A stretch of 55,899 nucleotides of DNA, filler included, from Dirinaria sp. TL-2023a (lineage: Eukaryota): the NCBI GenBank assembly GCA_051941275.1. It is 5 parts of 5 records of this genome, joined end to end, with 100 filler letters (N's around TTAATTAATTAA, not from the genome) between each part and the next. Parts side by side here need not be neighbours in the genome. Positions count along the whole stretch, not along the records: positions 11,212 to 22,320 come from JAVEBF010000876.1; 4 more parts are not named here. One strand, 5' to 3'. Made by a program: the position numbers and the translations under genes. Positions 5,840 through 47,034 of this stretch are shown here, one piece after another. Every line of letters starts with the position of its first letter. Within the stretch, counting starts at the first letter, position 1. The notes beneath the pieces are model-generated. The model saw only the letters and a program-made list of their open reading frames with translations, searched no databases and was not told the origin of the DNA.

Positions 5840-6400
5840 CGTGGCGACCAGTTGCACTGGAGCAAGTGCCTCAAAAGTGCTGAAAAAACGGCATGTTGTG
5901 ACGCCAAAATCCAGTTAGCAACCTGTTGGGATGGGTGGTGGCAGCGATGTCATGGTAGGACAAAGAAGCTCTACGGATGGCGGGGTTTTTAGGTACTTCC
6001 ACTAGAGTAGGTAGGTAAAGGTAAGGTAAGCTTACCCCCGGTGTAGTCGATCAGGTAAGGTGTAAGGTAATCGCAGTAAGGTATACCTTATCTTACAGTA
6101 AATTACATATCATGTGATATAACTTAGCGGGGCATTCACGCGGGTACCTTGAAGTAAAGTATCTTAAGGTACCTCAGGGACCTTAGGGATCAAATGCTGT
6201 CTCACAATGTTGATGTCTTAACCATGCCTTGGCGTTCACTTTGCAATGTATATTTTTTCAAGCAAAAATACGTCGCAAGTCACTAATTATCAAGGTAAAC
6301 GATATTCTCCATAACCGATACACCACAATCTCAGCACATTCACTTGCAGAGCCTCGATCGGCAGAATCTCAACCCAGCTACTGGACGCCAATCATTAAGT

Positions 6401-7724
6401 ATGGCATCCACGACGGTGACTTCTGCTTTGGCGAGGCTTGAAGATGTCTCAACCCCACAACAGGATAAGCTTCCTGGCTATAAGGATCTCCTCGCCAACG
6501 TTCTTTCCAATGCCGACTCCGCTATGTCGTTGTCTGCCAACCTTACCGCTATCATTGATTCCTTACTGAGCGATTCCCTCGGACTTCTAACTGCGCGCCC
6601 TTTATTGAACAGCGCAGTCCAAGCTATTGGCTCGATTAGGACCGTTGGAGAGCGAATAGCGGCAGGAACCCACGCTCTTCGGGTCTTACAGCCTAGAGTC
6701 GTTTCATTCGAGGAACAAGATGCCATGATCAGAGAGATCCTTGCCGATTCCTATCAGGAAAGTGAAGAATTCCTGGAAGCAGCAAAGGTTCTTGCTGGCA
6801 TGCCACTTGAGTCATCACAACGTACAGTCTCCGATGATTCAAAGGTGAAGATCTGGATTCGGATCTGTCGCTTGTTTCTGGAGGAAGATGACACTACAAG
6901 CGCAGAAACTTTTCTGAACCGGGCGAAAAACTTGCTCTATAAGGTAGAGAACCAAGAGCTCAACCTGCAATTCCAATTATCCCAAGCTCGCATTCTAGAC
7001 GCTCGGCGGCGGTTTTTGGATGCTAGCCAGGCTTATCATCAAGTCAGCTTCTCTTCGATACTGGAAGAAGGTGAGCGCCTTCGCGGTTTGTCCTCGGCTA
7101 TTGTATGCGCTGTGCTAGCTCCAGCCGGACCACAGCGATCAAGAACCCTTGCGAAGCTGTATAAGGACGAACGAGCGCCTCAAATGGAGGAGTTTAGCAT
7201 CCTAGAGAAAATGTTCCTAGATCGGTTGTTGACCTCAACAGAAGTGGCCAAGTTCGCAGACAAGCTAGCACCGCATCAACTTGCGCAGACTGCCGACGGT
7301 TCGACGGTCTTGGCTAAGGCAGTCGTGGAACACAACCTTCTCAGTGCTTCGAAACTTTTTGAAAACATATCGACGAGTGAGCTCGGTGCATTGCTGTGTC
7401 TTGATCCTGAGAAAGCTGAAGAGTATGCTGCTCGTATGTTCGAGCAGGGTCGGCTTATCGGCCGTATCGATCAAATTGATAATGTCATCTTCTTCGAGGG
7501 CCGCGAAGGAAGCGGCGAAAGAATTACCACAGGTCAAGCCATCACTGGAGTAGCGCATAGGGACCTCAGAAATTGGGACTTCAAAGTTCAAGGCATTGCC
7601 GAAGAGATTGAGCGAGTTGCATCGATGCTGCAACTTCAATATCAAGTATGCTTATAATCACACCTCCTAAAATTATTCTTTAACCTGTGATCAGGGCCTT
7701 AAAGCAGGCACTGTGGCACACTGA
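6401..7724 (+). CDS. csn4: COP9 signalosome subunit 4 (PCI domain)
   Basis: Motifs PRVVSFEEQ, RLFLEEDD, LAPAGPQRSRTLAKLYKDER, AVVEHNLLSASKLFENI and GRIDQID. Terminal intron GTATGC..CAG at 7646-7694, last exon GLKAGTVAH* at 7695-7724. Confidence 0.95.
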
Positions 7725-9557: not shown

Positions 9558-10189
9558 ATGAAAATCTCAAGACCACTTTCCCTACACAAGGTTTCTGGTC
9601 TTTTTGGGTTAGCTTTGACAGTATCGTTGTCTGGTTCTGTACCTTCAAGCTCAGTACCAGATGTCTTAGTCAACGCCACGTCACAGTTGCGACTCCCAAT
9701 ATGCTCGAGGGCGTCAGACGTAGCGAACAGGTAATTCCACACAGCAAAGGTCTGCAAGTGACAAGTCATCGGGATCTAACCTTTATACTTGAAAGACTCA
9801 ATGAATATCCGAGAGACCCATACCAAATGCGAGTCGCCGACACCACTACGTCTCTGATCTTCAGTAAATACGGCTCCACGCTCTATTTCGCGACTTTCCT
9901 TGATCTCATCTGCAAAGCGCAATATCAAATCGTTCAGGACATGGCCGCTTCCCATGGGGATGGGCCTGTATCGCAGCCGGACTTCGAATGGGTCCAAGAG
10001 AGGCTATCCGTGGAAATCAGTCGGCCGTTCGCTCAGCTGGATCTAACGTGGTTGATGTTGGCGGATACACTGGAAGGATTGCGCGTGTTCTTCACTAGAT
10101 ATGGGTGGTTTGAGACGACGATTACTGTGTTGGATGATACAGCGGGCCCCGTGGGGTATGGCAGCGTCAAGTACAGAGTACGTGTATGA
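9558..10189 (+). CDS. Small putative secreted protein of unknown function (about 188 aa, 2 exons)
   Basis: Exon 1 (9558-9730) MKISRPLSLHKVSGLFGLALTVSLSG.. has a hydrophobic leader. Intron 9731-9795 (GTAATT..CTAAC..AAG) joins in frame to exon 2 RLNEYPRDP..LTWLMLADTLEGLRVFF..VLDDTAGPVGYGSVKY. Confidence 0.7.
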
Positions 10190-10435
10190 AAACATAATGC
10201 ATGGGAAACGTAGATAGTGTCGATAGGACTATCCTGAATCAGGAGTGGATGTACAGTCAAGATATCAGCGGGAACAAGTATGAACGGAAAAGTGAGCCAG
10301 CCCCTAACGTCAGTCTTTATGCGATGGACTGTTATTGTTATGCTAATAAGGAGTTCCTTATGGAAATCAGGTACTAGCTAGGTTATGTGGTAATGTGCAA
10401 CAGTATGAGAAACAAGGAGTCTATTACTATCAAGA

Positions 10436-10677
10436 CTAATTACTGAGAAACTCAAGTTCTCGAGATGAGAATGATCTCTTTATTCTATACGACTTCGCAA
10501 TCGTTTGACAGTATTGCGAATATATCGTACTAAAGTTTACGCAGCGTTTATAAAACGATGACATCAAACTATTTAAAAATTTTCGAATACTCGTTCCAAT
10601 TTTACTGATCTCAGAGAATTTTGAGAAAATTTTCACTCATTTCACGTAATAAATCACTAAATCGTAATGATTAAAAT
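10436..10677. mobile_element. AT-rich degenerate repeat relic (RIP-like)
   Basis: Abrupt shift to AT-rich sequence with very few CC/GG dinucleotides and retained CG/TCG/CGA. It abuts the LTR-like unit. No coding homology recognised. Confidence 0.35.
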
Positions 10678-11111: not shown

Positions 11112-11211
11112 NNNNNNNNNNNNNNNNNNNNNNNNNNNNNNNNNNNNNNNNNNNNTTAATTAATTAANNNNNNNNNNNNNNNNNNNNNNNNNNNNNNNNN
11201 NNNNNNNNNNN
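11112..11211. other. Artificial contig linker
   Basis: 44 N + TTAATTAATTAA (stops in all six frames) + 44 N. Confidence 0.98.
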
Positions 11212-11615
11212 TTATAAAGCCCACCATTCGGATCCCCGTTCGTAACCACCTGGATCGTCGCATTCGTGCCCTCCCTCACCGGCGTCCCCGCGGGCAGCAC
11301 CACGTCCCCGAGGCAGAACTTCCCGATCCCCTGCTCCTGGACCGTGCGCACCAGCGTGATGTTGAAGCCCGTCCCCACCGAGTTGCCGAGACCGAGCAGT
11401 ACTTGTACTGCTGCTTCGTCGTGCTCCATCGTCAGCTGGATCGGGCCCCCGCCTGTGAGCGGCCAGAGGGTCCGGTTCGTCGAGGGAGTGTTTTGCCCCC
11501 CGCATGGGAACTGGACCAGGGCGTCTTCGTCGAAGCCCCGCGCCGGAGGGGAGTCGAGGGTGAAGTGGGCGAGGGCGGTGAGGGGGAGGATGGAGAGAAG
11601 GAAGAGGGAGAGCAT
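11212..11615 (-). CDS. X325 / Bim1-like secreted copper-binding protein (LPMO-like His brace), 3' end truncated by the contig end
   Basis: Signal peptide MLSLFLLSILPLTALA is followed directly by His1 (HFTLDSPPARGFDED..FPCGG). A second His sits at mature position 49 (MEHD), then FCL and NATIQVVTNGDPNGGLY. The expected C-terminal Cys motif and GPI tail would lie beyond the break. Confidence 0.85.
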
Positions 11616-12826
11616 TGCTGCGTTTGGGGATTGTTGAGGGGGGATGATTGGTGGGGTTTTGAGTGAGAAGTGAAGAGAAGAGGTAAGGTCTTTGGAGGGT
11701 TTGGAATGGTTGGCCGGTTATGGAGAATTGGTTTGGGCACGAGGAACAAAGAAGTGGATTTTTTTTTTGGCCGCTTCCGAGTTTGAAGTACGAGAGGTGA
11801 CAATCGTGTGCTGCGTATTATTGCGGGAACGTGCAGAATTGAGGAGTTTAAAGGGAAGGTAGTAAGGTAGTGAAGCAGCAACACGAAAGAGAGAAGTCAC
11901 AGCTGAGGAAAAAAAACTTATGATTCGGCAGGAACCACGTGAACATAAACACACACATACACATACACTGTTCTATTCAATGTCCGTTACATGATTACTA
12001 TCACAGCCCTAGGTAAGGTAATGATCATCCTCCGAGACGTTGCCCCTCAAAACGTGCTCAAAACGGTGCCTAGATTCCATCTTGAGGATCAGGCATTGCT
12101 CCGATCCACGTTACCTTATTCAGCGTCAAACGGCGAGAGTGGCACTAGATGGGGGCTGATACATAAGAAGATAAGGTAGTCAGCTGATCAAGTTGATGCG
12201 GTGAGACCGAAGATGAAATGATCAGGTGTTCGGTTAGGGAGTCCATCCTCGGTGGAACAGAAGGATTGGCGATAGATTTTGGGGTTGAGGGAGTTTGAGG
12301 GAGTTTGAGGGAGTTTTTTTCTTCAGCGTCTAAATCCTTGTTCTCGCTTGTCATGCACGGTTAGGGCTTGCTAAGCATTTGGGGGCCGGGCGTTTTACGC
12401 GGGTGCATCACTCGATAGTAAGGTAATACGAAGTATCGTCCCCCTAGCGTACGTACATCATGGCAGGTAGCGTAGTACTGAAACAGGGAAAGGTGGCGGA
12501 TTTGATTCGATCATCGAATCTCGCATCAATGATGGTACCATCCAGATAAATCTCTTTCGGAGCCTTTTTGTAGTGATAGTGTGGTCCCGCGCAGGTGGTA
12601 AGGCGTGCTCTCAGCTCTGGCCGCAGGTACCCAGCCTTGACTTCCTACCCGAGCCTGATATCATAAAGAGATTCTAGGCAGGTACAGTAATTAAGGTAGT
12701 TACTCTCTGGACGCCTCGCTGTGCGCCTAGGTTCCATTGAAACCGTCATTTCTAGCCTTAAAGAATAGCACTTGCATCATCATAGCCATGCTCGAAACTC
12801 CTCCATGTGATGTAGAACCAGTTTGA

Positions 12827-13449
12827 CTAATGTTCTTCCAATTGCGCATACCGGCCCACCAACAGCTCGCCTAAGAATATACCGCCCATGACAGACATAA
12901 AGTAGCCGACATTGAATGTCATCACCGCCAACATCCTGTAGCATCGTTAGTCTTCCGCCTCGAGAAGGTTCCTCTGATCGCCACTCACAGCAAATACTGC
13001 ACTCCGCTCAGCACCATCACGTACGCCGCCCGGGGCAGGTCGACGCTGAACCTCCAAGGAACCACGCCTTTGCGCTTCCTTCGCACTACTCGTACGTGCT
13101 CTTCCACTCCCCGCTCCGTGATCAGAGTTCCGGTTTTGGCCCGAGAGTCGCTGTTGATGCGCTCCACTTCGGTCGGAGTGCCTCTAACGCTGACATATCT
13201 CCGATTGAGCTCATTGTCCAGCCAACGGTGTTCAAGTAAGTGCTTTCCCGCGGCGAGGCACCGGGAGATGGTGGCAAGGACGATGAGGAAGATGCAGGTG
13301 CCGGCGTAGGAGCCTGTCGTCGCCGGCGTCCAAGCCGTTGAATAGAGAGGTGTGGAGGTGATGGTAGTAAAGACGTTCGACATCATGGAAGACATGGTGG
13401 TGTTGGATGTGGACTGCGAGTCCGTGGAAGACATGGAAGACATATCCAT
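12827..13449 (-). CDS. Ctr-family copper transporter (about 189 aa, 2 exons)
   Basis: Met-rich N-terminus (MDMSSM..MSSMM), TPLYSTAWTP..YAGTCIFLIVLA and PWRFSVDLPRA. Intron 12988-12936 (GTGAGT..CTAAC..CAG) joins YLL to MLAVMTFNVGYFMSVMGGIFLGELLVGRY, which carries the MxxxM and GxxxG motifs. Confidence 0.93.
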
Positions 13450-14400
13450 TGTATGTAGAGCGTGGTTGTGACTGAAAAGAAACAAAGGAGCTTTCGGTTG
13501 TAGAGGGTACCTAGTAATCCTTTGAACTGTTGGGTGAAGGCTTTCAAGGTGGCATGGGACCACAAAAGTAGATACTGTTGGCTCGGAGGCGCAGGCACAG
13601 GGGCGGGGCGTCCGGGAAGGCGTCCATGATGGGTGGGTGATGGGACGTTGAAGCCATCAGTTCAATGTAGGAAAAACTTGCTCAATTGACCGCAACTACC
13701 CTAGTGTGGTGGCATTCGGAGCACGATTTGTGTCACGATTCTACCTATGGATAAACTGTGACACACTAATGAGGAAAGTGCAACCGCTCTTGTCCAGGGT
13801 CATGGTTGGATTTAGTCCGGATCAGGTAAAGTAGCCGAGTACTTGAACTCAGTCGTAAGTACATTCGTACAGTATCTTACATCTTCCATGTACCTGAGTC
13901 TGGACTGTTCTTTGTCACCAGGAGAATGAATCAATGGAAGGTCGGGTGGCACATGTTCATTACTTTACCTACGTTACCTGACCTTATCATTACCTTCCCT
14001 TATCACTTACCCACTGTACCTTCCATTGTGATTCCCCTGCCTCCCCATCCAATCAGCCTCAGCCTACCGAAGTAAGTTACCTCAGTTGAGGTCGGTCCAG
14101 TTTCCCACCGAGTAATGAAACCACTTCCGTTCCATCCCAACCTTTGTGCTATCTCGTCTTCCTCTCTCTCTTCATTCTTTATTTGACCTGACAGTGACTT
14201 TGTTCTCTACTCTTCAAGTTTCCTGAGTTATTGCAGTGCTCCCGTTTCTCTTTATAACTTCGAATTTGGATCGTGCAATCTCTGGGCCGACAAATGGACA
14301 GAGTGGGTTAGCGACAGGTGCATATTCTGTCCTTGAACGCTATCAATCCATCGTCATAGTTCTCGATAGGGCCCGAAGACGAAAACCTTTGACCGCCAGC

Positions 14401-16623
14401 ATGGATATGTCGGGTATGAGCATGGGGAGCGAAATGGGCGGCATGTCCATGGGGAGCGGCGTCCCCAACCTCTTCTATCTGCAGAAGATGTTTTGGGCTG
14501 TCGTTGGAGCTGCTATAGGGCTTGCTACGGCAGTCAATGTGTACAATGAGCTTCTTTGCAGGCAAAGGTAAGCATCTTCCGGCTGTCAGCCATGATGCAT
14601 CTAATTATGTCTCAGGATATCCGCCGCTCGTCGTGGTCACAGTGCACCCGCAAAGCCAACAGCTTTCCTTCCGTCGAGTGTAGCCACCACTGCGGCCATA
14701 TGCCGCGAGGCAAGCTATTCTAGTATACCTATCAGGCTCACGCCGAAGCTCTACTGGTCGACACCACAATTTGGACGTGTGTTACTCGTGCTTGCAGAGT
14801 TTGTCGTTGTAATTGTGCTCTGTTTCTACAAGCTGCACCCTAAGGATCAGTGGCAATGGGAGGACATCGGATACCGCACGGGCTTTATCGCCAGCTGCCA
14901 ATTGCCCCTGATCGTCCTCCTTGCTGGTAAAAACAATATTGTCGGCTTTCTCGTCGGTACGAGCTATGAGAGACTGAGCTGGCTGCATCGATGGGCGGCA
15001 AGAATCCTGCTCTTGACCGTCACATTACACATGGGCTACTGGTTTGCAGATTGGTACCGTTATGATTACATCAAAGTCAAGCTCACAACAGACGCGATCA
15101 CGAAGAGAGGCTTCGCCGCGTGGGTTATCTTGGTATGGATTGTCTTCAGCTCCATGGCTCCGGTCAGAAGATGGAACTACGAGTTTTTCGTTGTGCAACA
15201 CATCATCACTTACGCAGGTTTTCTGGCATCTGTGTATCTGCACCTTCCGGCAGAGGTGAAAGTCTGGGTGTGGATTACTATTGGACTGGTCATCCTAGAC
15301 CGCACCATACGCACTTTTACGGTCTTGTACACCAACACCCTGGTCCTCCATCAGGCCAAGCGCGAGGGTTTCTGGGCCAGTAAAGCGACTTTCGAGCCCT
15401 TGGATGCGGAGACTACGCGCATTGTCATCTCAAAGCCTCCCCTTAGCTGGAAAGCAGGCCAGCACGTGCTGTTGTCATGCCACACCATTGCGCCTTTACA
15501 ATCCCATCCTTTCACAATCGCTTCCATACCCTCCGACGGGAAAATGGAGTTCCTGATCAAGTCCAAAAATGGAGGCACTAGACGATACCTTCGACATGCA
15601 GAGAAGCAATTGGGCTTGCCCATCACAGATACTCCAGTGGAATTGCGCCATCGAAGTGCAGTCACGCTCGAAGGGCCTTATGGACGAATCAGGCCTTTGC
15701 AACAATTCGATAGCGTGATGTTCGTCGCAGGCAGCAGTGGAGGAACTTTCACCGTACCTCTGCTGCGAGAAATCGTACGTCTTTGGAAGACCGGAGGAAG
15801 AGACACGGACTCGCCGTGGTCCTTGTTCAATCCACGAGGTTTTGTAACAAGATATGTAAGATTTATCTGGGTCGTTAAGTCTCGAGCGCAGTACAAATGG
15901 TTCTCCCACCAGCTCATAAATGCTATCGAAGATGTCGAGTTTCTCAGAAGCCAGGGACAGGATGTCGAGCTGGAGATCAGTATCTACGTCACTTGTGACC
16001 AAGACTTCGTCAGCGGCACCAAAGGCGTACCTCAGCAGAGCGGCTGCGATCTGAGGCAAGATCAGCCTGCAAAACCATCCTCAACCCGCCTCCCAATGCC
16101 ACAGCGTGAGGAGAACAGAGAGGATGACATTTCTTCCCAGCCGCGCTCGCACCCTGTAGCCGAGCCGGAGCCAAAAGCATCTTGTGGACCCGACGGTACA
16201 TGCTGCTGCCAAACGACTATTGAGGACGAGGATGGCATAAAGTCCACAAACGCCGCGTGCGAATGCTGCTGCTCGAACTCGAGAGATCTCGCACTCAGTG
16301 ATGAGAAAAAACCAACGCCAGTAGTGGAATCCATCAGCTCTGATCAGAACTCTGACCGATCCTTGACATGGGCGAACGCAAACAGAATAGATTCCTCCCC
16401 GCGTGCCGAGATCTTGATGTTATCGGGTCGTCCTCAGCCCAAGAATCTCATCCGGAAGACGTTGGAGCAAGCATTGGGCGAGAGCGCGGTGGTCGTCTGT
16501 GGGCCCAAAGGACTCGTGGCGAATGTTCGACAGAGCGTCGTGAGCCTCAGCGATGAGAGGGCTATACATAAGGGGACCGGCGCCCAGGGGGTATACTTGC
16601 ATGCCGAGGCTTTCGATTACTGA
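14401..16623 (+). CDS. Ferric/cupric reductase (FRE family, about 724 aa, 2 exons)
   Basis: Exon 1 14401-14567, intron 14568-14615, exon 2 in frame with ORF 14779-16623. Heme-His motifs (WLHRWAAR..LHMG, YEFFVVQH), FAD motif HPFTIAS, EGPYG, NADPH motifs VAGSSGGTF and VVVCGP, and C-terminal HAEAFDY. Confidence 0.93.
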
Positions 16624-18476: not shown

Positions 18477-21369
18477 TCAAAGGCTCATGGTCAACCACTC
18501 CCATTCTGCCTGACCGCTGACAGGCCCTCCGCCAGCGGTGATAGGTTGCTGACCATTTGCCACCGTGCCGAAGCCTTGCATAGGCATACCGCTGCTTGCC
18601 CGCTGTTGCTGAAGGCCTGACGACGGTTTCTTGGACGAAGTCGGCGACATTGGCTTGCCACTCGTACCTTCTGCGTCGGCCATTTGCTCCTCCGCTCGGC
18701 TTCCTTGCCTCTCGTGCCTTCGCTGCCGCTTAGGAGCTACGGCAGCTACTGATCTATTGGCTGCATTGCTGACCGGCACAATCGGTGTAGGTTTCGGTGG
18801 AGCAGCGGCAATAGGCACAACACCTCCCTTCCCAGGAGCAGCTCCGTAGCTCGTAGGGGTGCTGCCGGCTGTGGATCCTCCGTTCGCAGAGCCTTGGGCA
18901 GACGGAGGGGATGCCGAGTCGTTCACACTCGGAGGCTTGGCAGAAGTTGGAGTCGTTGCTGGTGTCTGGTGTATGGAATTCTTGCGTGCGCCCTTTTTGG
19001 TCGAGCGTGTACTCGTACCAATCGGTAGCTGGTGGCCACTGCCTCGATTTCGCTTCTTGATCACATCGGTCTTAAGGGAGAGGGGGCGAACAACACCGTG
19101 AAGCTTGAGGAATAGACCGCACGCATTACACAGGGGGTGGCCTTCTGGGTTTCGGCGCCAAAGTGGGGTTGTTTGTGTGAAGCAGTTCGTGCAGGTCGTG
19201 GGCACTCCGTTGTTTTCGCCGTTCTTCGGACCACCAGGGCTGCCGGGGCGAGAGGGAGCTACACTACTGTATCCAGACGGAGGTGGAGAATTTGGAGATG
19301 ATTGGGGTCTGGCATGCATGTGGTGTTGCTGACTGAGTTGTACCGCATTTGGTGTGGAGCTGATTCGGGGAATCTTCTGATTCCTCTGCGCTTCGTTCCC
19401 TCCATATCGGATGTCACTTACGGATGTGGTTGATCCGTGGCCGCGGTGCAGCCCACCGCCGTTCGTCCAGTCCTGCGGCGACGAGACCATCTCTGTTCCT
19501 CCAATTGTTACTTGCTTTCGAGGCAGACCGTTGGGATATCGTGCCGCCGTGTTATTCAGACTGCTACCTATGGACGGGTCCCAAGCCACAGAGTTCTGCA
19601 TGTCAAACGAGGGGTCTTCCATGGGCGAATACTCCAACTGCATCATCATGGATGGATCTTGGAAACTATTGCTCTCTTCATCCTCGTTTTCCGAATCACC
19701 TCCAAAGGAGAACATGTTGTCCTGACGGGCAGCGTTCATGGCTGGGGAATGCGTCCCCGAATATCCGGCCTGCAGGACGTGAGAAGGATTGATGTGTTGC
19801 TGCATTGAGAAAGTAGGGGCGCTCATGTTGCTTGTAGAGGCGGTGCCTGACGTAGTCACAGCGCTGAACATCTGTTCGTTATTTGGATTGTAGATGTATC
19901 TTGGCTGCATATTTGACAGTTGCGAAGGCCGACCTGCGGAATAGTTTGCCACTTGACGTTGCTGACCGTCGAAATACATTTGTTCCTTGTCATGCAGCGG
20001 TTGCGGAGTGGAAGTCGTCGAGGGGTAAGCGGAGCCCGGAGGAGAGTAGTAATCTGAAGAATTTAGGGATGATCCTACAGGAGTATGTTTGTATCGCGGA
20101 TATGGTCCATGCGGGGCGATCGGAGAAGCAGTTGGCGAGAAGGTGAAATCTTGTTGAAAAGGGCCGGCAGAGTGTAGTATGGGGTCGTCGCTGATGCCAA
20201 AGGTGTCAATTGGAAATGGGACGTTGGAGTAGCTGTTCACATGCACAGGATACTGAGTTTGTTGTGCTGACGGATCCAAGGTGTAGTCCGATAAACCATC
20301 AGGCTCGTTCGATACAGGAATATTGTTTGTAGGCTGGATCTGAGGAGAGAACTGAGCTGGGCGCTTCTTTGACTGTATTCGCCAAGTCAGTCAAACATAT
20401 CTTGCACATCCGTGTAGAACACAATACAGACCCTCGTCTCATCGATACTGGTCTTGCGCACTCGTCGCTGTACATATCCGAACTCATTGGCCCTTGTTCG
20501 ATCATGCGACGGGGCTGATGGTGGGAAGGCAGGATGCGGCTGTTCTTGCACGCCCTTTTTGGTCTTGATTGGTATAGCTGAAGCCATGGCTGCAGACGGC
20601 GCTGCTGCTAATTCGGAGGGAGGAGAGGGGGACAGCCCAGCAGGAGAAGCAACGGAGGTAGGGAAGATGTAGTCATCGATGTTCATGGGATCATCCTGAG
20701 CATTGTTTGTGTCGTTGTGTGAACTTCGTAATCGAGCGATTCCCGACGGCATGGTCGGCGCGCTCGTAGCTTGTGAATTTAGTCTACAGCGAGCTGTTAG
20801 CCAGAGCTAGTCGCAGAACTGAAAGACAGCACGTCGGCCAGAGCATACCGTGCCTGTTCCCGCTCCTTGCGCTTCAAATTCATGGCCATCATCCTCCACG
20901 TCAAATTCTCCATGCGCTCATGATTCGGCAGTTTCGTTTTCGTCTTACTGTACAACTTCCATATTTGCGTGCCTAGAGGGTCTCTCTTCTGCATCTCCTC
21001 AGGATGTTCGAGATCAGTACTAGCGGCATCATCTTTCCAGTCGGGGAAGAAAGCCTCGCGGAGCAGGTCCTTGCGGGCATTGTTGGTCTGTTGCGAGAGA
21101 TCCAGGTTGGCGCGAGGGGAATCGTCCGGAACTGGCGATACAGCGGACACCTGCCGAGGCTGCGATGACGAAAGATGAGATGGATTCGACGTTCGTGAAG
21201 TTTGTGGGGAAGCGGCGGATGGAGGGACATGGTGGTGGTGCTGATTGCCTGAAGATGGCCCTATTAAGGCCTCGAACTCTGCATTCGACTGGGTGGCTGC
21301 ATGTGCTGGACCCCCACGCGCTCCTCCGGATTGCGCTCGTTTACTCATTGTACTGGCAGAAGCCATCAT
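18477..21369 (-). CDS. areA: Nitrogen regulatory GATA factor AreA/NIT2 (3 exons)
   Basis: [25 protein letters not shown] domain. GATA finger [50 protein letters not shown]. Diagnostic C-terminus EWEWLTMSL. Introns 20848-20784 and 20431-20373 join to [11 protein letters not shown]. Confidence 0.97.
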
Positions 21370-21872
21370 GCTCGTCCGGCTGGACAGGACTCGAGGATAC
21401 AGCGGGTCGCCGACTCGCTCACTGGGGGCGGGGAGGGGGATGATGGCGATGGAGGGGCTTCAAAGGAGCGGACGACGCTCGCCTCCGCGCGTGTTGCTCA
21501 GTCGCTTGGTCGCCTATTTGCTCTCATAGTGCCACCAGGGATAGTACCGAGTACCGACAGAGAGGGTGGAGCCTTGTAAGAGGAAATAAGGTAAGAATAA
21601 TTGGTAGACGGTGTTGGTTGGACGGATGTCTATTCTCTTGCTACTGGTCTAAGAGGAGTCTAGGGGCAGTTCTAGGGGACGGTCTGGGAGCGTCTTTCAA
21701 TTAGCCACACACATACACTGACCCCTGCGGAACGCAGCAAAACGGGTGCATCAATTGGCAGCGGGCTAATGTGCACAATATCAATGTGATGAGTGGTGAC
21801 TGGTGGGCGAGGTCTGCGAACCTAAGCCGTGGAAGGGGACCGAGGTTTTTTCTTTTTTTTTTTTTTTTTTTT

Positions 21873-22320: not shown

Positions 22321-22420
22321 NNNNNNNNNNNNNNNNNNNNNNNNNNNNNNNNNNNNNNNNNNNNTTAATTAATTAANNNNNNNNNNNNNNNNNNNNNNNN
22401 NNNNNNNNNNNNNNNNNNNN
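22321..22420. other. Artificial contig linker
   Basis: 44 N + TTAATTAATTAA + 44 N. Confidence 0.98.
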
Positions 22421-29690: not shown

Positions 29691-32600
29691 ATGACGAGCC
29701 TCAAAAGATCTCTAGCATCAGATCCACATGCTTCAAATATTTCGAGTAAAGTTTTCATCAGATCTACCAAGAGCGGCAAAGTTCAGAAGATAGTCAGAGA
29801 GCTCTATCTAAGGCAAGATATACCCTGTTCGTCAAAACTATGCGTAAGCTGTTTGGCGAGCGCGCCGGCAGATGCGAATGGCCACGGTAGATACGATCAT
29901 CTCCTTCGCTTTTTCCGTCTCCCGTAAATCTAATATATCCCTAGTACTTCCTTTCATTTTATCTGAGAAGCCCGCTGGAACTAAAGCCTATCCCACGGGC
30001 CATTATTTGGTTCCAGATACAAATGCATTTCTTAATGGCATGGATCTCTTCGAGCATAAGTCTGCCTTTTACGACGTCATAGTTCTACAGACCGTATTGG
30101 AAGAGTTACGGAACCGTTCGCTACCACTATACAATCGGTTACTGGGTTTAACTAAGACCGAAGATAAGCACTTCTATGTCTTCTTCAACGACTTTAGGCT
30201 TGAGACTCATGTAGTCCGGGGTACGGGTGAAACTATCAATGACCGGAATGACCGAGCAGTGCGGAAAGCGGTCGACTGGTACCAAGACCATCTCCGGCAG
30301 GCCGTCAAGGCTAGCAAGGGTACTAGAATTGCCCCTGCTGTTGTCATGCTGAGTGACGACCGAGAAAATCTCAAGAAAGCAAAAGCGGAGAATATCAGTT
30401 GTTGCTCACTCTCTGACTACGTCTCTGGGCTCGAGGATGCCGACCAGCTCTTGGATATGATTGATGCTTCTCGACAAGGGCAGGAGATCCGAAACAGTGG
30501 TGCTGAAAATATATATCCTGAGTATTTTTCCCTAGCCAAGATGATGACTGGCATCAGAGCGGGAACGCTCCATCAAGGTATCTTTAATGTCTCGCCCTAC
30601 AACTACCTAGAAGGATCTGTGCATGTACCCGCATTCGAAAAATCGCTCTTGGTTCTGGGCCGCGAGAACAGCAACCGAGCTATCTCAGGTGATGTCGTGG
30701 TTGTAGAAGTGCTGCCGAGACCGCAATGGAAGGCTCCATCTACAAAGATAGTAGAGGAGGATACCCTGAATAAGAACGAGAATGCCGAGGTGGAAGAGGG
30801 AGAAGGCGAAGCTGTCGTGACTGAGCAAGAGCGCCGAGCACTACAAGAGCAAGTGAAGAAGACTCATGGAAAGAGTAAAGAGGGACGCCCGCAGCCGACT
30901 GCTCGCGTCGTAGGTGTAATCAAACGCAATTGGCGGCAGTACGTCGGGCATATCGATAGTGCTTCAAGCTCGATGGCGAAATCCGGGCGAAGACAGCAGA
31001 CTGTGTTCCTTCTACCAATGGACAAGCGGATTCCCAAGATTCGGCTGCGGACAAGGCAGGCTGATGAGCTCATGGAAAAGCGAGTGCTGGCTACCATCGA
31101 CGCCTGGGATCAAGACTCTCGTTATCCCGTGGGACATTTTGTGAGATCGCTTGGTGAATTGGAGACCAAAGCAGCGGAGACTGAAGCTTTGCTGCTGGAA
31201 TACGATGTTCAATACCGACCCTTTCCAAAGGCGGTGCTGGATTGCTTGCCAAAGGAGGGTCACGACTGGAAAGTACCCTCAAGCACACAAGATCCAGGCT
31301 GGCGTGGTCGAAAAGACTTGAGAGACTTATTGATCTGTAGCATCGACCCGATAGGTTGTCAAGACATCGACGATGCACTCCATGCTCGACCCTTGGCAAA
31401 TGGCAATTTTGAAGTTGGCGTACATATTGCAGACGTGTCCCATTTCGTCAAGCCGGGCAATGCTATGGACACCGAAGCTAGCGTTCGAGGAACGACCGTC
31501 TACCTGGTCGACAAGCGGATCGATATGCTGCCTATGCTCCTTGGCACTGATCTGTGTTCTCTCAAACCCTACGTGGAACGCTTCGCCTTTTCTACGATCT
31601 GGGAGATAACACCTGACGCTGAGATTGTCAGCTCAACCTTCACCAAATCCGTAATTCGCTCCCGTGAAGCTTTCAGCTACGAGCAAGCCCAGCTCCGCAT
31701 CGACGACAAGTCGCAAAGCGACGACCTTACTTTGGGCATGCGCACACTGCTCTCCCTCTCGCAGAAACTCCGCCAAAAGCGCATGGACGCTGGAGCGTTA
31801 AACCTCGCTTCCCCGGAAGTGAGGGTCCAAACGGAATCCGAAACCTCCGATCCTATCGACGTCAAAACAAAAGAGCTCCTCGCCACCAACTCCCTCGTCG
31901 AGGAATTCATGCTGCTAGCCAACATCAGCGTCGCCTCCAAAATCTACACCTCCTTCCCCCAAACGGCGCTGCTCCGGCGCCACGCCGCTCCCCCCGCCAC
32001 AAACTTCGACGACCTGACAAGCCAACTCTCCACGAAACGCAATCTCAGTCTCGACGTCTCCTCCTCGAAAGCCTTGGCCAACAGCCTCGACACCTGCACG
32101 GACCCGCAAGAGCCCTTCTTCAACACCCTGATCCGCATCCTCGCCACCCGCTGCATGATGTCCGCCGAGTACTTCTGCGCCGGCACCCACTCGTACCCGG
32201 AATTCCGCCACTACGGCCTCGCATCCGAGATCTACACGCATTTCACGTCGCCCATCCGGCGCTACGCCGACCTCGTCGCGCACCGCCAGCTCGCGGCCGC
32301 CATTGGCGCCGAGGAGGAGGATGATCTCGACCCGGCCCTGCGCAGCAAACCCAAACTGGAGGCTGTCTGCAGGAACCTCAACGTGCGCCACCGCAACGCG
32401 CAAATGGCCGGGCGCGCCTCGGTGGAATATTACGTCGGCCAAGCCCTCAAGGGCCGCGTCGTGGACGAAGAAGGGTTCGTGATGAAAGTCTTCGAAAACG
32501 GGTTCGTGGTGTTTGTGCCGCGGTTCGGCATCGAAGGGCTGATCCGGTTGCGGGAGCTGGCGGAAGGAAAGGAGAGGGAGCCGGAGAGCAGTTTCGACGC

Positions 32601-32730
32601 GGAGGACTTTGTGCTTGATATCCGCGGGTGGAGGAAGGTGGAGGTGTTTGGGAAAGTGCGGGTCAGGATCCGTGATGTTAGGGAACAGGGTACGGGGAAG
32701 AGGAAGATTCAGATGGGGTTGTTGAAGTAG
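29691..32730 (+). CDS. dis3: Exosome catalytic subunit Dis3/Rrp44 (PIN + RNB + S1)
   Basis: Exon 1 has KVFIRSTKSGKVQKIVRELYLRQDIPCSS. Intron 29887-29944. PIN motifs VPDTN and ETINDRNDRAVR. RNB motifs SIDPIGCQDIDDALH and HYGLASEIYTHFTSPIRRYAD. Confidence 0.97.
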
Positions 32731-33528: not shown

Positions 33529-33628
33529 NNNNNNNNNNNNNNNNNNNNNNNNNNNNNNNNNNNNNNNNNNNNTTAATTAATTAANNNNNNNNNNNNNNNN
33601 NNNNNNNNNNNNNNNNNNNNNNNNNNNN
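33529..33628. other. Artificial contig linker
   Basis: 44 N + TTAATTAATTAA + 44 N. Confidence 0.98.
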
Positions 33629-40029: not shown

Positions 40030-43000
40030 CTATCTGAGAGCCAGAAGCTCGCGCGTCTTTTTGGCTAGGTTGGGGATCCTCTTTAATGCTAAATCCCTTG
40101 GGTTAGTCTCGTTGATTTCCATGTACCCTCGCTCAAGTCGCTGCAGGATTACGTCGAGGATCTTTGGCGACACCTCAAAGATTTCAGGATCCTACCAGAT
40201 AATTAATTCGCGGCCATAGTATTCGGAGGAGTTGACTCACTCTAGGATCGATGTTGCGCAGAACAACTTCCAGCCAAGTCAGTCGTTCCATCGTACTTTC
40301 GTATAACGAAGCTGTCATTGCCGCGCCGACAGAGAGTGCAACCAGAGGTGCAAGCTGCTCCAGAAAACCCGGGTTGCAGTGGGCGAAGTAGGTGTTGTAG
40401 ATGCTTTCTTGCCGATTAGATTGCAGCCACTGCGCATTTTAGTACAATGGTGAGTGCAGAATGAAGGGTGTCACCTACTTGTATCATTGCTTCCTCATAG
40501 TGCCTTTCGGCCATCATGCGAGATATTGCGTTGAGCTCTGCCTGTTCAGGCGTCATCTGTTGGAGGGCGGAATGACTTGATTCCCGAGACGCTTCCTGTT
40601 GTCTTCTCGAAGTCTCCAGGATTGAATTGGCTTGACGATCTTGTGCCGCTTGGGACTGGAGCTTGAGAATTTCTTGCTGAAATTCCGATTGCGCGGCCGC
40701 CATCGTGTTGACAGTCTCGGATAGACGACGGACGAGCATGGTGAGATCATCAATCTTTGCACTGTCAATCTGTCTCTGCACATCTGCCTGGTGGAGCTGT
40801 TCCTTTACACGCTCCTGGGTTTCCACACTTGTCTTTTGGGCTACATTGAGCGCAAGATTCCTGAACGATGGAGTGATAGTGTTGTGCAAAGTCGAGATAA
40901 ACTCCTTCTCAACGTGGCCAGAGATTTTGTTGGTAATTTGATCGGAGAGAACACGGAGAACTTCAGGTTTTTGAAGCGAGCGGCTGACGGCTTCGGGTAG
41001 AGCAAGCTTCAGGTGAGCTGGAAGCGCATTTTGCAGCTGCTGAGTCAAGGCTGCTGCGAGCCTCTTATCTAGTGTAGTGGACATGACATCTGCTATGGCC
41101 GGGATGACAGAATCTTTGATATTCATTTGGATAATCCGGCTTAGTGCCTTATCAACGTTGTCTGATAATGTTGAGGAGACCAAACGAAGCATTGCATCCT
41201 GTTTAGCAGTGCCTGCTGCATCCTGAACGCGTTTATCATCATCAATACGGCGATACAGATTCTCCAGTTCTCGGCCGAGGACTCTATTGAACTCAGTCGA
41301 CACACCTATCTCGATCTTCTTGAGTTCTTTGTCAAGGAAGTCGCCGGATATCCCAATGTTGACGGACTCTCCATTTGCTATCGTCTGTGAACGACGCTCG
41401 GCTTGGGGGCTCACTCCACGTTGAGCTGTGTCGCCGTGTGAGTCAGAGGTGGGAGCAGCAAGGTTGGGCGTTTCGCCATGTGCTGGTTGAGTTTCAGCTG
41501 CAGCATTGCGCTTTTTCTTCTTCTTTTCCGCCTTCTCGGAGTGACCGCTGGATGTCAGTTCGGGAGCTGGTGGATCCTTTGGATCGGCTGGTGGAGCGAG
41601 ATTTGCGGTTGCTTCGGTCTCAATATTGCGGGTTCTGACTGGTGACGAAGCTGTACGCTGTGCCACGTCACCCTTCTTATTCTTGGATTTTGAATTCGTT
41701 TGATGAGCAGCAGATGGTCCATTATCTCCATTCATCGGAAGCACATCGCCGGACGGCCCTGGCTGTCGCAGCTCTCTAATAACCACGAGGCCTTCATTTT
41801 CTGCTTTTACCGGGTTTAGTACCCTGCTCTCATTTGACCAGCCGAGATCCTCCTTATTGAAACTGAGGGATATTACGCCCCTAGAATGCATCAAGTATAG
41901 CTCAAAAACATTAGAACTATCTTCCTCTGGCGGCTTTGTGGACTCATAATCCGATTGAAGCAAGTCCATACTTCGCATCAGACAGATGGTACGGAGTGAG
42001 TACTCACGGATACCGCTCATGATAGCCGTGACCGTTGGCCTTGGTAAGGATGGGTCGTGATTTGCCAATTTCTGTGCTAATTGAGCCTGAGACATTGCGG
42101 GAACTAATTCATATCTTGGAGCGGATAGATGTATGAAATACAGTGAGTTTCGCGTGGGATGTCCAAGCACTATGATCTGAGAGGACGGATGATACGCGAT
42201 GCTACAGATGGCATCCGTTTCCTGGTCATGAGGGAAATTCAACTCTTGTACCACCTTGTTGAGACACAAATCCCAGAGTTGCAGTGTGTGGTTCTGTTTC
42301 ATTCCAATCAGGACATAGCGCTGCGCTATGCCTTTCTGATAAGCTCGCAGTTTATCAACGAAGAGAATGGAGGTAGGCCACGACTTCTCGGAAGCTCGAA
42401 TGGTTGCAAAGCTGAGTACTGGAGTCTTGATATCGATTGTAGCAAGTTTAGATGCCGTAGCGTTGTCTTCAGTAACAAGGTCACGGATGTCCCAGATCTT
42501 TAGTTTGCCCGCTTTGTCCAGTGTTGCGATGACGGTATCATCTTCACTGAAAACGAAATCCTTGCTAGCCTTGCCCGTACTGATCTTCAAGGTGCGGTCT
42601 TGGAAGTAGTCATCTGTATCCAACTTGGACGATTCGCTAACGAACTTTGAAGCACGTGCATGCGATGGGAAGATAATGTGGATGGACTTGCCCCGACCAA
42701 TACCGAAGAATTCGGCATGGCGATTACTCTTCTTCGCACGGGTTTTGAGCTGACCGGTCGAGGGGCTCTCACCATGTGATCCCAAGGGTGGAACGATCAA
42801 GCCTTCTTTCTCCATGGCCTCTGCCTGAAAATCTGTTCGAGAGGGTTGCTCTCCCGGCTTGACCACTGTTGCCCAATAGACTGCACCGCTGATGCCCGTC
42901 GCGATGACATTTTGAGTACCGCGTAATGGGCTATGGTGTTGCGCGGTCGATATGCAGACATTGAAGATACGGTCGTGAGTGCTCTTGAAAATTTGCTGGT

Positions 43001-44721
43001 TATCACCGTTGTCTTGGCGAATAACCCTGATGCCTCCAGGTTTTGCGACGGCGGCGACGCCATATACGACGACATCGTTAGTAGCTGTGACCAGAGTTCG
43101 ATCGATCTGGTCGAAATCTTTCTTGAACTTAGCAACATCGATGAGAGTGTCATGGCGGATATCGACTTTAGGCAGGTCATTCAACCGAGTGATATCAATT
43201 GCAACGAAAGGCTTCATTGGGAATTGGTAGACAGGCACAACACGCTCGCCTTGCGCTCGAGAGTGAGAGTCCGTTGTTTCAGTCGTTTCGCTGTCAGGGG
43301 CAGGTCTATCCTGGGCGGCGTCGTCGATAATACCTTTCACGGCTTCGGCGACAGGCGTGGTCATCGACTCTTCCAGAAGGTTCTTGTTCTCCTCCTTGTC
43401 CAACTCTTTCTTGATTTCTACGGCTGTCTCGTGAGCGCTCTCCGCCATCGCTTCGATTGTTTGCTCTTGCGCTCTTTCGAGCTCTTCCTTCTTGATCTCT
43501 GCTTGTTTCTCCTTCTCTTCAGCATTTGCAAGGGCATTCTCGACCTCCTGATCCACCTTACTACCAACTTCGTTCAACGCCTCGGCCACTGTTTCAGGAT
43601 CGCGCGTTGGAGCTCCGATCCCCATCAAAGCTTCGACTGGGGTGCGCCCATCGACGACTGGAAGAGGCGCTGGAGACTCGATGCTTTGCAAGACATCGTG
43701 GCCGGAGGGTGTAAGCTTTCGCCTTAAGCTAGCAGAATCACGAGAGGGAGACGGCTCTTTTATCTTGCGTTTGTGAAAGTCCGGCGTGGGCGATTTTGCC
43801 TTGGTGTTGCGGGGAGAGGACGCAGCTAACTGCTCAAAAGGATTGACATAGGTGAATATTCCCTCCTTCTTGGGAGCAGGCTCGGCCTTAGGCGTTATCT
43901 GTGGCTCAAAAGGCGTAGGCGTGTCATCTTCCTTGTTCCCAAAGACTCGGATGGGGGAGTCCTTGCGATGAGACGACGGCACATCATACTGCCCTTGGCC
44001 TTCAGTCTCCACTTTGCCTTGAGATATGGAGCCAGCATGCGCGTCGTCCGAGTGCGGTTTGGGTGAGGACGCCTCTACTTCGCTGCCCGGGGCACTTGAG
44101 CGATTGAGGAGCTTCAGCAGAAATTCCTGGTGATTGGCCGAGGTTGATGGCCCCTGCGACCGGTGAGCCGAGGCCGAGGCCGAAGCCGGTGTCGTCGCCC
44201 TCGCCAAAGGCTTCGGTGTCGTCTCGCGGGGGCCTTCGCGCGGTGAGGGGGTAGAAGGCTTTCCCATAAACGAAGCTACAAGGTCCGAGGCAGAGATACC
44301 ACGACCATGGATGCTGTGTGCTCTCGCCGTGGGAGATAAATGGTCATAGCTCATCTGTGGGGCGCCGGCAGGATTGTGTTGGTGATGTTGCGGATGCAGG
44401 TGAGGTGATGTGTGTGCGTCAGGGCTTGCCTGACGCTGAGCTTGCTGGTGGGGTTGCGGAGAGGGTGAGGGTGCACTGAATTTCAGCAAGTTCAGTAAGC
44501 TGGCGGTGCGGTCTGCATTTGACGGATCGTCGGGTCGGGGAAGGGGATGATTGCTGGTGGTACGGGTGCTTTGGTTCGAACGAAAGGATTGATCGTTATC
44601 GCGAGGAGTTGGTAAGCCTGGAGACATGATCTCTGAAGGGGTAGGATCATTGATGAATGCCTGAGGCGGTGCTGGTGTTAACGAGGTTGGTGGGTGGTAC
44701 GAGTAAGGATAAGTGTAAGGG
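40030..44721 (-). CDS. Edc4/Pdc1-like decapping scaffold (low-complexity N-terminus, beta-propeller, C-terminal helical region), 5' end truncated by the contig end
   Basis: The frame of ORF 40416-44627 stays open to the contig end. It contains FTYVNPFEQL, VYQFPMKPFVAI, KKDFDQIDRTL, QLKTRAKKS and WD-like KLKIWD / HTLQLWD. Two 3' introns lead to WLQSNRQE.. and DPEIFEVSPKILD..LLALR* (stop at 40030). Confidence 0.72.
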
Positions 44722-44821
44722 NNNNNNNNNNNNNNNNNNNNNNNNNNNNNNNNNNNNNNNNNNNNTTAATTAATTAANNNNNNNNNNNNNNNNNNNNNNN
44801 NNNNNNNNNNNNNNNNNNNNN
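44722..44821. other. Artificial contig linker
   Basis: 44 N + TTAATTAATTAA + 44 N. Confidence 0.98.
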
Positions 44822-45162: not shown

Positions 45163-47034
45163 TCAAAAAAACCCATGCCCACTCTGCAACACGCTGCTAC
45201 TAGCCACGAAACTGAAGCCGCCGAAGGGATCATGACCTCCTCCTCCAGCCCCACCCCCACTACCACCACCCGGCAACAGCGGACTAAGCGGCAAACCCGT
45301 GAATTCCGCCGCGAAATTCTCCGCCAACTCCGGATCCGTGATGAGCGGTTTGATCGGGGGCTCGCATTCCCGACGTTCCAGGCGCTTCCAATCGATCTTG
45401 CGGAAAAACCGGTGCTGCTTGATGAGTTTCAGGTCGACGAGGCGCTTGCGGGGTTCCTTGCGCAGCAGGCGCGTGAGCAGGTCCTTGGCGTCCGGGCTCA
45501 GGAAATAGGGCAGCACGAGTTTCGATCTGAGGATCTTCTCTTTGGTTCTGGTTTCGTTGTTGGCGGCGAAGGGGGACGAGCCGGTCAGCAGGTCGAAGCC
45601 GAGGATGCCGAAGGACCACCAGTCGACCGCGGTGTCGTAGGCGGCGCGCTGCTGGATCACTTCGGGCGCCATGTACTCCACGGTGCCCGTCATGGAGCGG
45701 CAGCGGTAGTCGCCGTCGACGGCGACCTTGCTGAGCCCGAAGTCCGTCAGCAGCAGGTGGCCCTCCGAGTCGAGCAGGCAGTTCTCCGGCTTCAGGTCCC
45801 GGTACACGACGCCGATCGTCGTGTGCAGGTGCTCGAGCGCCAGCACCATCTCCGCCATGTAGAAGCTGGCCGTGTCCTCCGGGAACATGCGCTCCGTGAG
45901 CATGCGCGTGAAGAGCTCGCCGCCCTGCGCGTACTCGAGGATCAGGTAGAGCATCTCGTGGTCTTGGAAAGCGTAGTAGAGTTTCACCACGAACGGGTGC
46001 CGGTTGATGCTCTCCAGGATGGCGCGTTCGGTCTTGGTTTGTTCGACGAGTTGCTTGCGTACCGTGAGGGAAGCTTTGCGGAATTGCTTCTGGGCGTAGA
46101 GACGGCCGGTCGCCGCGTGCTTCACCAAGAGGACAGTGCCGTAGCTGCCTTTGCCAAGGCAACGGAGCGGCTCGAAGTCGCTTGCCGTCATCTTCCGGCT
46201 GATCTGATCGAGCATAGGGCCCCTGCCTGGTGCATTCTCTGCGTCTTTGGGTGCATCTGGGCTGGTGAAGTCGTGCTCGAGAGGAACTTCATAGCTGGTG
46301 ATTTGATTTGCATCCTCGTCGCTGTGACCTTCGGACGCCGCGCTCACACTGCTGGGCGTCTCTGTCCCGAGCTTGCTTTTGTGCCTCAGTAACGAAGGCT
46401 TTTGGAGACCGTTGTCGGCGTTGAGATTTTCTAGTTGTCGTGTCAAGGCGCTTACACTTCCACCTGGAGAAGAGCCTCGCCCTAGGCTGCTGGTGATGCT
46501 GAAAGATCGGGTGACGCTCAAGTCTCGCTTCTTGAAAACTTCCCCGCTTGAGAAGTCGGAATCCTCGTCGCATGATGTGCCGGGAGTGAGAACACTAGGG
46601 GAATGCAATGCTGCAAGGACACTCTTTTTCTGTGCTCTTTTCTTCCTTCGCGCGGCTTTGCCGCTAAGATTGACTGGCTTGAGCGTGTGATCAGCGATAT
46701 CAGTTGTCCTTCCTCTTGGCGTTGTAGATGCCGCTCCGATATCGATAGGCGGCGTGCTGCCCGTGGAAGTATACGCTGTGTGCGGCTGTTGAAGAGCTTC
46801 ACTCAAGCTACTCTTTCCTTTGGCTGCGCCACAAATTTGTCCTCCCATCGTCGTGCCTGTCGACGTTCCTTGCGTCGCATCCTGCGCAACAGCCTCGAAT
46901 GAGGCAAACTCTCGCTGCGCATCCTCATTTGTAGAGCGCTCCAGGACTGTCGTACCGTTGGTGTTGTCCGCATAGCGCTGCCCAGCTCCTGCGGTAGGTA
47001 GCCAAGACGCTTCGGGTTGTTCGAAAGCGAACAT
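45163..47034 (-). CDS. psk1: AGC-family Ser/Thr kinase, S6K-like (Psk1/Ypk3 type)
   Basis: GKGSYGTV, YAQKQFRKAS, YRDLKPEN, LTDFGLSK, GTVEYMAPE and AVDWWSFG, plus the AGC tail ITDPELAENF..FGGFSFVA. First ATG at 47034. Confidence 0.85.
   Translation of the reverse strand: MFAFEQPEASWLPTAGAGQRYADNTNGTTVLERSTNEDAQREFASFEAVAQDATQGTSTGTTMGGQICGAAKGKSSLSEALQQPHTAYTSTGSTPPIDIGAASTTPRGRTTDIADHTLKPVNLSGKAARRKKRAQKKSVLAALHSPSVLTPGTSCDEDSDFSSGEVFKKRDLSVTRSFSITSSLGRGSSPGGSVSALTRQLENLNADNGLQKPSLLRHKSKLGTETPSSVSAASEGHSDEDANQITSYEVPLEHDFTSPDAPKDAENAPGRGPMLDQISRKMTASDFEPLRCLGKGSYGTVLLVKHAATGRLYAQKQFRKASLTVRKQLVEQTKTERAILESINRHPFVVKLYYAFQDHEMLYLILEYAQGGELFTRMLTERMFPEDTASFYMAEMVLALEHLHTTIGVVYRDLKPENCLLDSEGHLLLTDFGLSKVAVDGDYRCRSMTGTVEYMAPEVIQQRAAYDTAVDWWSFGILGFDLLTGSSPFAANNETRTKEKILRSKLVLPYFLSPDAKDLLTRLLRKEPRKRLVDLKLIKQHRFFRKIDWKRLERRECEPPIKPLITDPELAENFAAEFTGLPLSPLLPGGGSGGGAGGGGHDPFGGFSFVASSSVLQSGHGFF

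Follow-up and report, generated by a model that had tools for sequence, protein, structure and literature searches.

The question raised by this locus is whether three neighbouring genes of the lichen fungus Dirinaria sp. TL-2023a, whose genome was binned from a metagenome, form a module for copper acquisition or merely lie side by side. The window, meaning the whole stretch of 55,899 bases that was analysed, consists of five contigs (11,111 to 11,078 bases, in descending order) joined by N44-TTAATTAATTAA-N44 linkers at 11112-11211, 22321-22420, 33529-33628 and 44722-44821. Features crossing a linker are artefacts, and one gene of interest is cut at one of them. The trio lies entirely inside the second contig (11212-22320, 11,109 bases) and comprises a gene for an X325/BIM1-like protein, a gene for a Ctr copper transporter and a gene for an FRE-family metalloreductase. 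The evidence assembled here makes it quite probable that this trio represents, in a lichen fungus, a conserved copper-acquisition cluster of three genes that is old in filamentous ascomycetes.

The order on the contig is X325 (minus strand), Ctr (minus strand) and FRE (plus strand, divergent from Ctr). The 5' part of the X325 gene occupies 11212..11615 (134 codons; PF20238), the Ctr gene 12827..13449 (189 amino acids, one intron; PF04145 and spliced RNA) and the FRE gene 14401..16623 (724 amino acids, one intron; PF01794, PF08022, PF08030 and spliced RNA). Pfam matches, coordinates and strands bear out the gene identities and the geometry proposed in the initial annotation, including the ATGs at 13449 (Ctr) and 14401 (FRE). 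That annotation placed Ctr about 1.2 kb upstream of X325 on the same strand, and 1,211 bases were measured between the Ctr stop codon (12827-12829) and the X325 ATG at 11615. It also saw no intervening gene between Ctr and FRE, and the identical proteins of Dirinaria sp. TL-2023a do carry consecutive locus tags (Q9191_005585/Q9191_005586) with no annotated gene between them. The window has the same order, surface protein, Ctr and reductase with nothing in between, as Aspergillus fumigatus, in which Sugui et al. (2008; PMC2481287, available text) reported Afu6g02800 (a putative glycosylphosphatidylinositol (GPI)-anchored protein), Afu6g02810 (ctrA2) and Afu6g02820 (a metalloreductase) as adjacent genes.

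Linkage of X325 to ctr-fre in related genomes had been set as the test of the idea, and it was assessed from locus tags and accession numbers among the best 120 matches of each family search. Among those matches, all 15 genomes with at least two of the three families had numbers that were consecutive or one apart, and no counter-example to linkage was present. All three tags were consecutive in Fulgogasparrea decipioides (Q9201_007193/2/1), cf. Caloplaca sp. 1 (Q9220_000037/8/9) and Gyalolechia sp. 2 (Q9216_003844/5/6). The X325 and Ctr tags were consecutive in Gyalolechia fulgens, Letrouitia leprolyta and Ikaeria aurantiellina (six other genomes overall, the three trio genomes included), and those of Ctr and FRE in Wetmoreana brouardii and Gallowayella weberi. 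X325 and FRE were one tag apart in Heterodermia aff. obscurata, Loekoesia sp. 1, Blastenia crenularia and Pyrenodesmia sp. 3 and directly adjacent in Letrouitia subvulpina and Xanthomendoza sp. 1, the latter arrangement possibly because the small Ctr gene is unannotated or mis-modelled there. Xylona heveae, which belongs to another class, also has consecutive X325 (XP_018186401.1) and Ctr (XP_018186400.1) entries.

Additionally, Joint Genome Institute (JGI) metagenome contigs were scanned with the X325 alignment, which gave 60 loci, and Ctr and FRE were sought in these by tblastn. An X325 match was present in 59 of the 60 loci, which fell into 45 groups at 95% nucleotide identity (the window forms a 46th group). 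Ctr lay upstream on the same strand in 18 of the 19 groups with at least 2.7 kb of sequence upstream of X325, and Ctr together with an opposite-strand FRE was found in 12 of the 13 groups with at least 4.5 kb; six groups with shorter flanks also contained Ctr. The scan patterns select this X325 orthogroup only, so that these counts are uninformative on other X325 paralogues. Some of the metagenome X325 proteins were nearest to Dothideomycete or Leotiomycete proteins (mostly 44-84% identity), although these rough labels are simply the nearest named protein and give only a hint of breadth. Because order and orientation recur both in named genomes and in metagenome groups, the adjacency is not a matter of chance, and the linkage seen in the window is well supported by the 15 of 15 genomes and the two sets of metagenome groups.

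The intergenic regions of the cluster share a second conserved feature. The window contains a Mac1-type TGCTCA site in the X325 promoter (12055-12060, plus-strand context AAAACGTGCTCAAAAC), 440 nt upstream of the X325 ATG, and another in the common divergent promoter of Ctr and FRE (13679-13684, plus strand, context AAAACTTGCTCAATTG), at distances of 230 nt from the start codon of Ctr and 717 nt from that of FRE. When all hexamers were counted on either strand in dereplicated intergenic regions, TGCTCA ranked first of 2056 hexamers in the FRE-Ctr regions (24 sites in 16 of 17 regions) and second of 2076 in the Ctr-X325 regions (29 sites in 18 of 21 regions). Of 1000 first-order Markov simulations each, 3 and 1, respectively, attained counts as high as those observed, and the density of TGCTCA was 1.58 (FRE-Ctr) and 1.28 (Ctr-X325) per kb compared to 0.64 per kb in the rest of the loci. 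The 5' flank of 52 promoter sites showed a preference for A at positions -4 (81%) and -3 (65%) and for C at -2 (69%), followed by T or G, whereas the flanks of 118 TGCTCA sites elsewhere in the loci were flat. The resulting extended pattern, AAC(T/G)TGCTCA, was present at 41 of the 52 promoter sites and at 13 of the 118 others. Both window sites fit the consensus DHNTGCTCANNN given for Fusarium oxysporum Mac1 from chromatin immunoprecipitation (ChIP) in the available part of that report, and the TGCTCA motif fits the A. fumigatus MacA motif TGTGCTCA. These comparisons suggest that in most lineages the X325 gene carries a copper-response-like element of its own, and a Mac1-type motif common to both promoters strengthens the idea of a clustered module.

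The window X325 sequence has the features expected of a secreted histidine-brace protein, as had been proposed. Translation of 11615..11214 on the minus strand matches BIM1-like_dom PF20238 (E 1.9e-27, profile positions 2-114 of 140), and the reading frame leaves the contig at 11212 after residue 134, so that the copy is incomplete only because the contig ends. The N-terminus reads MLSLFLLSILPLTALA followed by HFTLD, with signal-like residues 1-16 (11568-11615) ending in ALA and then the mature His1; the cleavage site (A16-H17) was judged by eye. His1 is residue 17, His49 is residue 65 and the Asp of NGDPnGG is residue 128, and H17, H65 and D128 are invariant in the alignment of 17 X325 sequences, as is the A16-H17 pair. 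When the profile of this alignment was compared with solved structures, only LaX325 (6IBH) was matched (E 1.1e-20, 150 residues), and the window His1 and His49 line up with His1 and His49 of that structure. In X325 proteins an Asp carboxylate occupies the fourth copper site, according to a review. Asp128 of the window is likely, but not proven, to be the equivalent of the copper-site Asp of LaX325, because the HMMER alignment to 6IBH has a one-residue gap beside it.

The missing C-terminus is supplied by P0365, a protein of 224 amino acids from the same 90% cluster (96% identity to the window X325 over 131 residues) that matches PF20238 at positions 2-139 of 140 (E 6e-37). It continues with NCADITF..., a Ser/Thr/Gly-rich linker and a hydrophobic tail. 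Other X325 homologues also have such a linker and tail, and some are named 'gpi anchored' by their sources. As judged from these sequences, the protein is probably secreted and GPI-anchored.

The Ctr gene consists of exon 1 (13449..12989), an intron of 53 nt (12988..12936, the cut being ambiguous by 1) and exon 2 (12935..12827 including the stop). Exon 1 matches PF04145, and the full product of 189 amino acids, P0121, which is identical to the window Ctr across exon 1, does so with an E value of 3.4e-38. The N-terminus is Met-rich (MDMSSMSS...MSSMM), and MLAVM (MxxxM, M155/M159) and GIFLG (GxxxG, G172/G176) are invariant in 21 Ctr sequences. We take MxxxM in the second transmembrane helix, GxxxG in the third and the Met-rich ectodomain to be the motifs of the Ctr family. 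The Ctr proteins of A. fischeri, A. novofumigatus and A. lentulus (section Fumigati), which we infer to be ctrA2 orthologues, are 56-57% identical to the window Ctr. In the deposited lichen Ctr models P0146, P0152 and P0163 the short second exon with MxxxM and GxxxG is missing; these models stop at ...YLL or run into the intron.

The FRE gene consists of exon 1 (14401..14567), an intron (14568..14615) and exon 2 (14616..16623 including the stop), and its product of 724 amino acids is 100% identical to P0241. Ferric_reduct PF01794, FAD_binding_8 PF08022 and NAD_binding_6 PF08030 are matched by 14617-16620 on the plus strand. The protein has two pairs of His residues each spaced by 14 (H180/H194 and H251/H265), HPF at 353 and CGP at 684, which we read as FRE reductase motifs. 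Its N-terminal tail MDMSGMSMGSEMGGMSMGSG (14401-14460, plus strand) is Met-rich and lies directly before an extra hydrophobic helix. In 12 of 13 dereplicated loci, the window included, the N-terminal extension contains at least three Met residues; the Met-rich tails, with MxM/MxxM repeats (e.g., MGGMSMG), are those of the window and of metagenome loci L003, L010, L011, L015, L031, L037, L041, L044, L049, L052 and L053. Such tails are similar to the Mets motifs by which Ctr ectodomains bind Cu(I), and may hold Cu(I) themselves. The literature search, at the level of titles only, found none on a Met-rich tail of fungal reductases.

The gene models agree with RNA contigs from a single lichen metatranscriptome study (runs X1-X3), which are 90-99% alike to the window and therefore come from a relative. 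The Ctr intron was spliced out in contigs of three runs (joint 12934/12988), as was the FRE intron 14568-14615 in the RNA contigs, and an RNA contig covers X325 over about 11212-11754, its record continuing beyond the contig end. A candidate intron in the 5' untranslated region of FRE (joint 14071/14237) was supported by a single contig of low depth, with 20 nt on one side, and we do not claim it. Gaps in RNA coverage between the genes and differences in depth from gene to gene were left out of the argument.

What was observed are the residues, the linkage and the motif; the induction of the genes, the binding of copper, the specificity of reduction and the hand-off between proteins are parts of a proposed route. 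Under copper shortage a Mac1/MacA-type factor would act on AAC(T/G)TGCTCA in both promoters and turn on all three genes, a step suggested by the conservation of the motif together with Mac1 data from Fusarium and MacA data from Aspergillus. By analogy with LaX325 and Bim1, the X325 protein would then capture Cu(II) outside the cell at a histidine brace formed by His1, His49 and the Asp. FRE would reduce Cu(II) to Cu(I), which its Met-rich tail may hold, and the Ctr trimer would take in Cu(I) through its MxxxM filter, the established function of that family. A cupric specificity of FRE is suggested by its context, namely its linkage to Ctr, the motif of Mac1 type and the copper response of orthologues in other fungi. 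A complex prediction with three Ctr copies and residues 16-158 of P0365 gave a score of 0.00 and was not used either way. The proposal of the initial annotation, a module that captures, reduces and imports copper, gains from conserved synteny and from the promoter motif; its accompanying claim that no such cluster had been described fails in part, as discussed below.

A broader proposal can also be made, to which we assign slightly less than an even chance: that the trio is ancestral to filamentous ascomycetes, is Mac1-controlled through own and common AAC(T/G)TGCTCA elements, includes a reductase with a Ctr-like tail and has never been described as such. The trio is found here in many Lecanoromycetes and in Xylona, and papers add Aspergillus and, partly, Pseudogymnoascus. 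If this proposal is true, the Ctr-like Met-rich tail of FRE suggests a physical relay from Cu(II) to Cu(I), passing from X325 to Fre to Ctr.

Several observations weigh against a conserved copper-acquisition cluster or limit what can be read from it. One metagenome locus, L023 (X325 at 10001-10540), stands alone among the well-flanked loci in lacking both Ctr and FRE within 10 kb in each direction; its X325 shares only about 50% identity with the closest protein listed, so that it may be a paralogue. In L009, a short contig, Ctr lies downstream of X325 and is convergent with it (L009:270-863, L009:1391-1759). A P value for the flank pattern is optimistic, because the pattern was defined after the sites had been seen. 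The FRE sequence does not discriminate cupric from ferric specificity, and the RNA contigs come from a relative in one study and document presence only; the copper response of these genes is putative. The A. fumigatus trio was deleted en bloc, and the conditions covered by the available text of that study, iron-limited medium and H2O2, brought out no reported defect in the triple deletant (PMC2481287). The proposed orthology of the window X325 to Afu6g02800 comes from papers rather than from sequence comparison. In Pseudogymnoascus destructans, BLP3, the most strongly induced of the Bim1-like paralogues in the part of that work available, has no CTR neighbour by locus tag. As to L009, its nearest named Ctr is from Geoglossum (85%); linkage is retained there in another arrangement.

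Other explanations for the trio have to be weighed against the same evidence. The three may be co-regulated neighbours only, with X325 not handing copper to Ctr and instead serving mainly the cell wall, where it would buffer copper or maintain wall integrity, or taking part in redox reactions. An effect on the cell wall is also described for Cryptococcus Cbi1/Bim1 (PMC9258870, available text), P. destructans BLP2 is described in the accessible part of its report as abundant in all conditions and is proposed to be a core matrix component, and a review names electron transfer among the possible roles of X325 proteins. However, X325 is linked specifically to a Ctr importer and a reductase over many lineages, a copper-response motif is present in both promoters and Bim1 works with Ctr1 in uptake, and we consider this reading unlikely. 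The link to copper itself could also be questioned, since the A. fumigatus genes rise together in hyphae exposed to normal compared to chronic granulomatous disease (CGD) neutrophils (log2 11, 8 and 3), for which iron and oxidative stress are discussed in the available text (PMC2481287), and since MacA also affects iron genes. A cluster for reductive iron uptake or for the oxidative-stress response would nevertheless be hard to reconcile with a triple deletant that, according to the same text, was normal on iron-limited medium and showed no added sensitivity to H2O2 (PMC2481287), with a ctrA2 product that is a high-affinity copper importer repressed by copper, and with a promoter motif of the copper-sensing Mac1 type, and we consider it very improbable.

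Finally, the contig is short and X325 is cut at its end, so that one might suspect genes placed together by chance or by faulty assembly, without any functional link. This suspicion has already been refuted by the 15 named genomes and the 18 of 19 informative metagenome groups that repeat the arrangement, and RNA contigs agree with the gene models; next to no weight is left for it. A conserved copper-acquisition cluster remains the explanation that we favour.

The remainder of the window is of a different kind. The next gene on the contig, about 1.9 kb past the FRE stop, encodes an AreA-type nitrogen regulator (18477-21459, minus strand; GATA zinc finger PF00320 and GATA_AreA PF08550 by Pfam), for which a copper link is not evident. 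The other contigs carry housekeeping genes for a PCI-domain subunit of the proteasome or COP9 signalosome (CSN), a Dis3/Rrp44 exoribonuclease, an EDC4-like beta-propeller protein and a protein kinase (6299-7654, 29848-32727, 40419-44720 and 45166-47079).

In terms of novelty, the window trio is a partial copy of an already known cluster type. The initial annotation knew of no described cluster that included the X325 gene; such novelty does not hold for the trio as such, as that of A. fumigatus was printed in 2008, but the X325/Bim1 label does seem to be absent from print. The full-text literature search found no paper naming an X325/Bim1-Ctr-Fre cluster, a negative that is not firm because the founding X325/Bim1 papers were outside its scope, and among the papers listed none contained both 'ctrA2' and 'Bim1'. 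No printed statement seems to identify the GPI-anchored neighbour as X325/Bim1-like or to point out the conservation of the trio. The general case, in which the trio is conserved and has copper-response elements of its own, may not yet have been published and would merit a short comparative note. The window result itself is ordinary: the lichen-fungus assembly is fragmented, and the cluster, of a widespread type, is present in it as a partial copy. A copper-uptake role of X325/Bim1-like proteins is proven only in Cryptococcus, and their function in ascomycetes is mostly inferred. The linkage to Ctr and a reductase, together with the common motif, gives independent genomic support for such a role in ascomycetes, as the initial annotation had expected, and the linkage singles out which X325 paralogue merits testing.

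Parts of this arrangement are known from other systems. Cryptococcus neoformans Bim1/Cbi1 belongs to the same family as the window X325 (PF20238; X325) and is a copper-limitation-induced, GPI-anchored, histidine-brace copper binder that acts with Ctr1 in uptake. There the link between Bim1 and Ctr1 is genetic and does not come from gene order; the two genes are not known to be neighbours. LaX325 (6IBH/6IBI/6IBJ) shares the aligned His1 and His49, and its copper site is completed by Asp, but it is a basidiomycete protein. Bacterial CopC and its relatives are histidine-brace copper binders encoded beside a copper transporter, as in the window, but they belong to another fold family and to prokaryotic operons, and the comparison is an analogy only.

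Divergent Ctr/FRE pairs with Mac1 sites in a common promoter, as in the window, are described in the available parts of two reports. In A. nidulans, ctrA and freC share a Mac1 promoter, an arrangement given for 110 of 127 species, and in F. oxysporum the pairs ctr3-fre9 and ctr1b-fre12 are direct Mac1 targets with binding detected by ChIP-seq. As far as the available text goes, these reports concern pairs only; the third Fusarium gene, FOXG_07771, is annotated as a SAM-domain protein and not as X325, and FOXG_02393 and FOXG_01130 are both annotated as 'uncharacterized'.

A Bim1-like gene beside FRE, as in the window, is found in P. destructans. According to the accessible parts of that work, the locus tag of BLP2 (VC83_03095) is directly followed by that of the reductase (VC83_03096), both genes are induced by copper withholding at the RNA and protein level, and a 2026 proteome table assigns them to A. 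fumigatus XP_747797.1 and XP_747795.1, two numbers apart, a spacing that fits the A. fumigatus trio. P. destructans differs from the window in that no Ctr is annotated between the two genes (CTR1a is VC83_00191 and CTR1b is VC83_04814 in the available tables), and no remark on the BLP2-reductase adjacency was found in the part of that work available.

The A. fumigatus trio has both the gene order of the window and, in the available text of the 2008 report, joint regulation of the three genes, which were treated as a unit in being deleted together. Its importer gene, ctrA2, is a MacA-controlled, copper-repressed gene for high-affinity copper uptake. The 2008 report differs from the present analysis in that its accessible text does not recognise the surface protein as X325/Bim1-like and gives it no role in copper uptake. 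Afu6g02800 is, in the portion of the P. destructans data available, the best Swiss-Prot match of VC83_07867 (BLP3, Bim1-like protein 3, Peterson laboratory). With the conserved trio described here, the long-unexplained 'GPI-anchored protein' next to ctrA2 in A. fumigatus gains a name.

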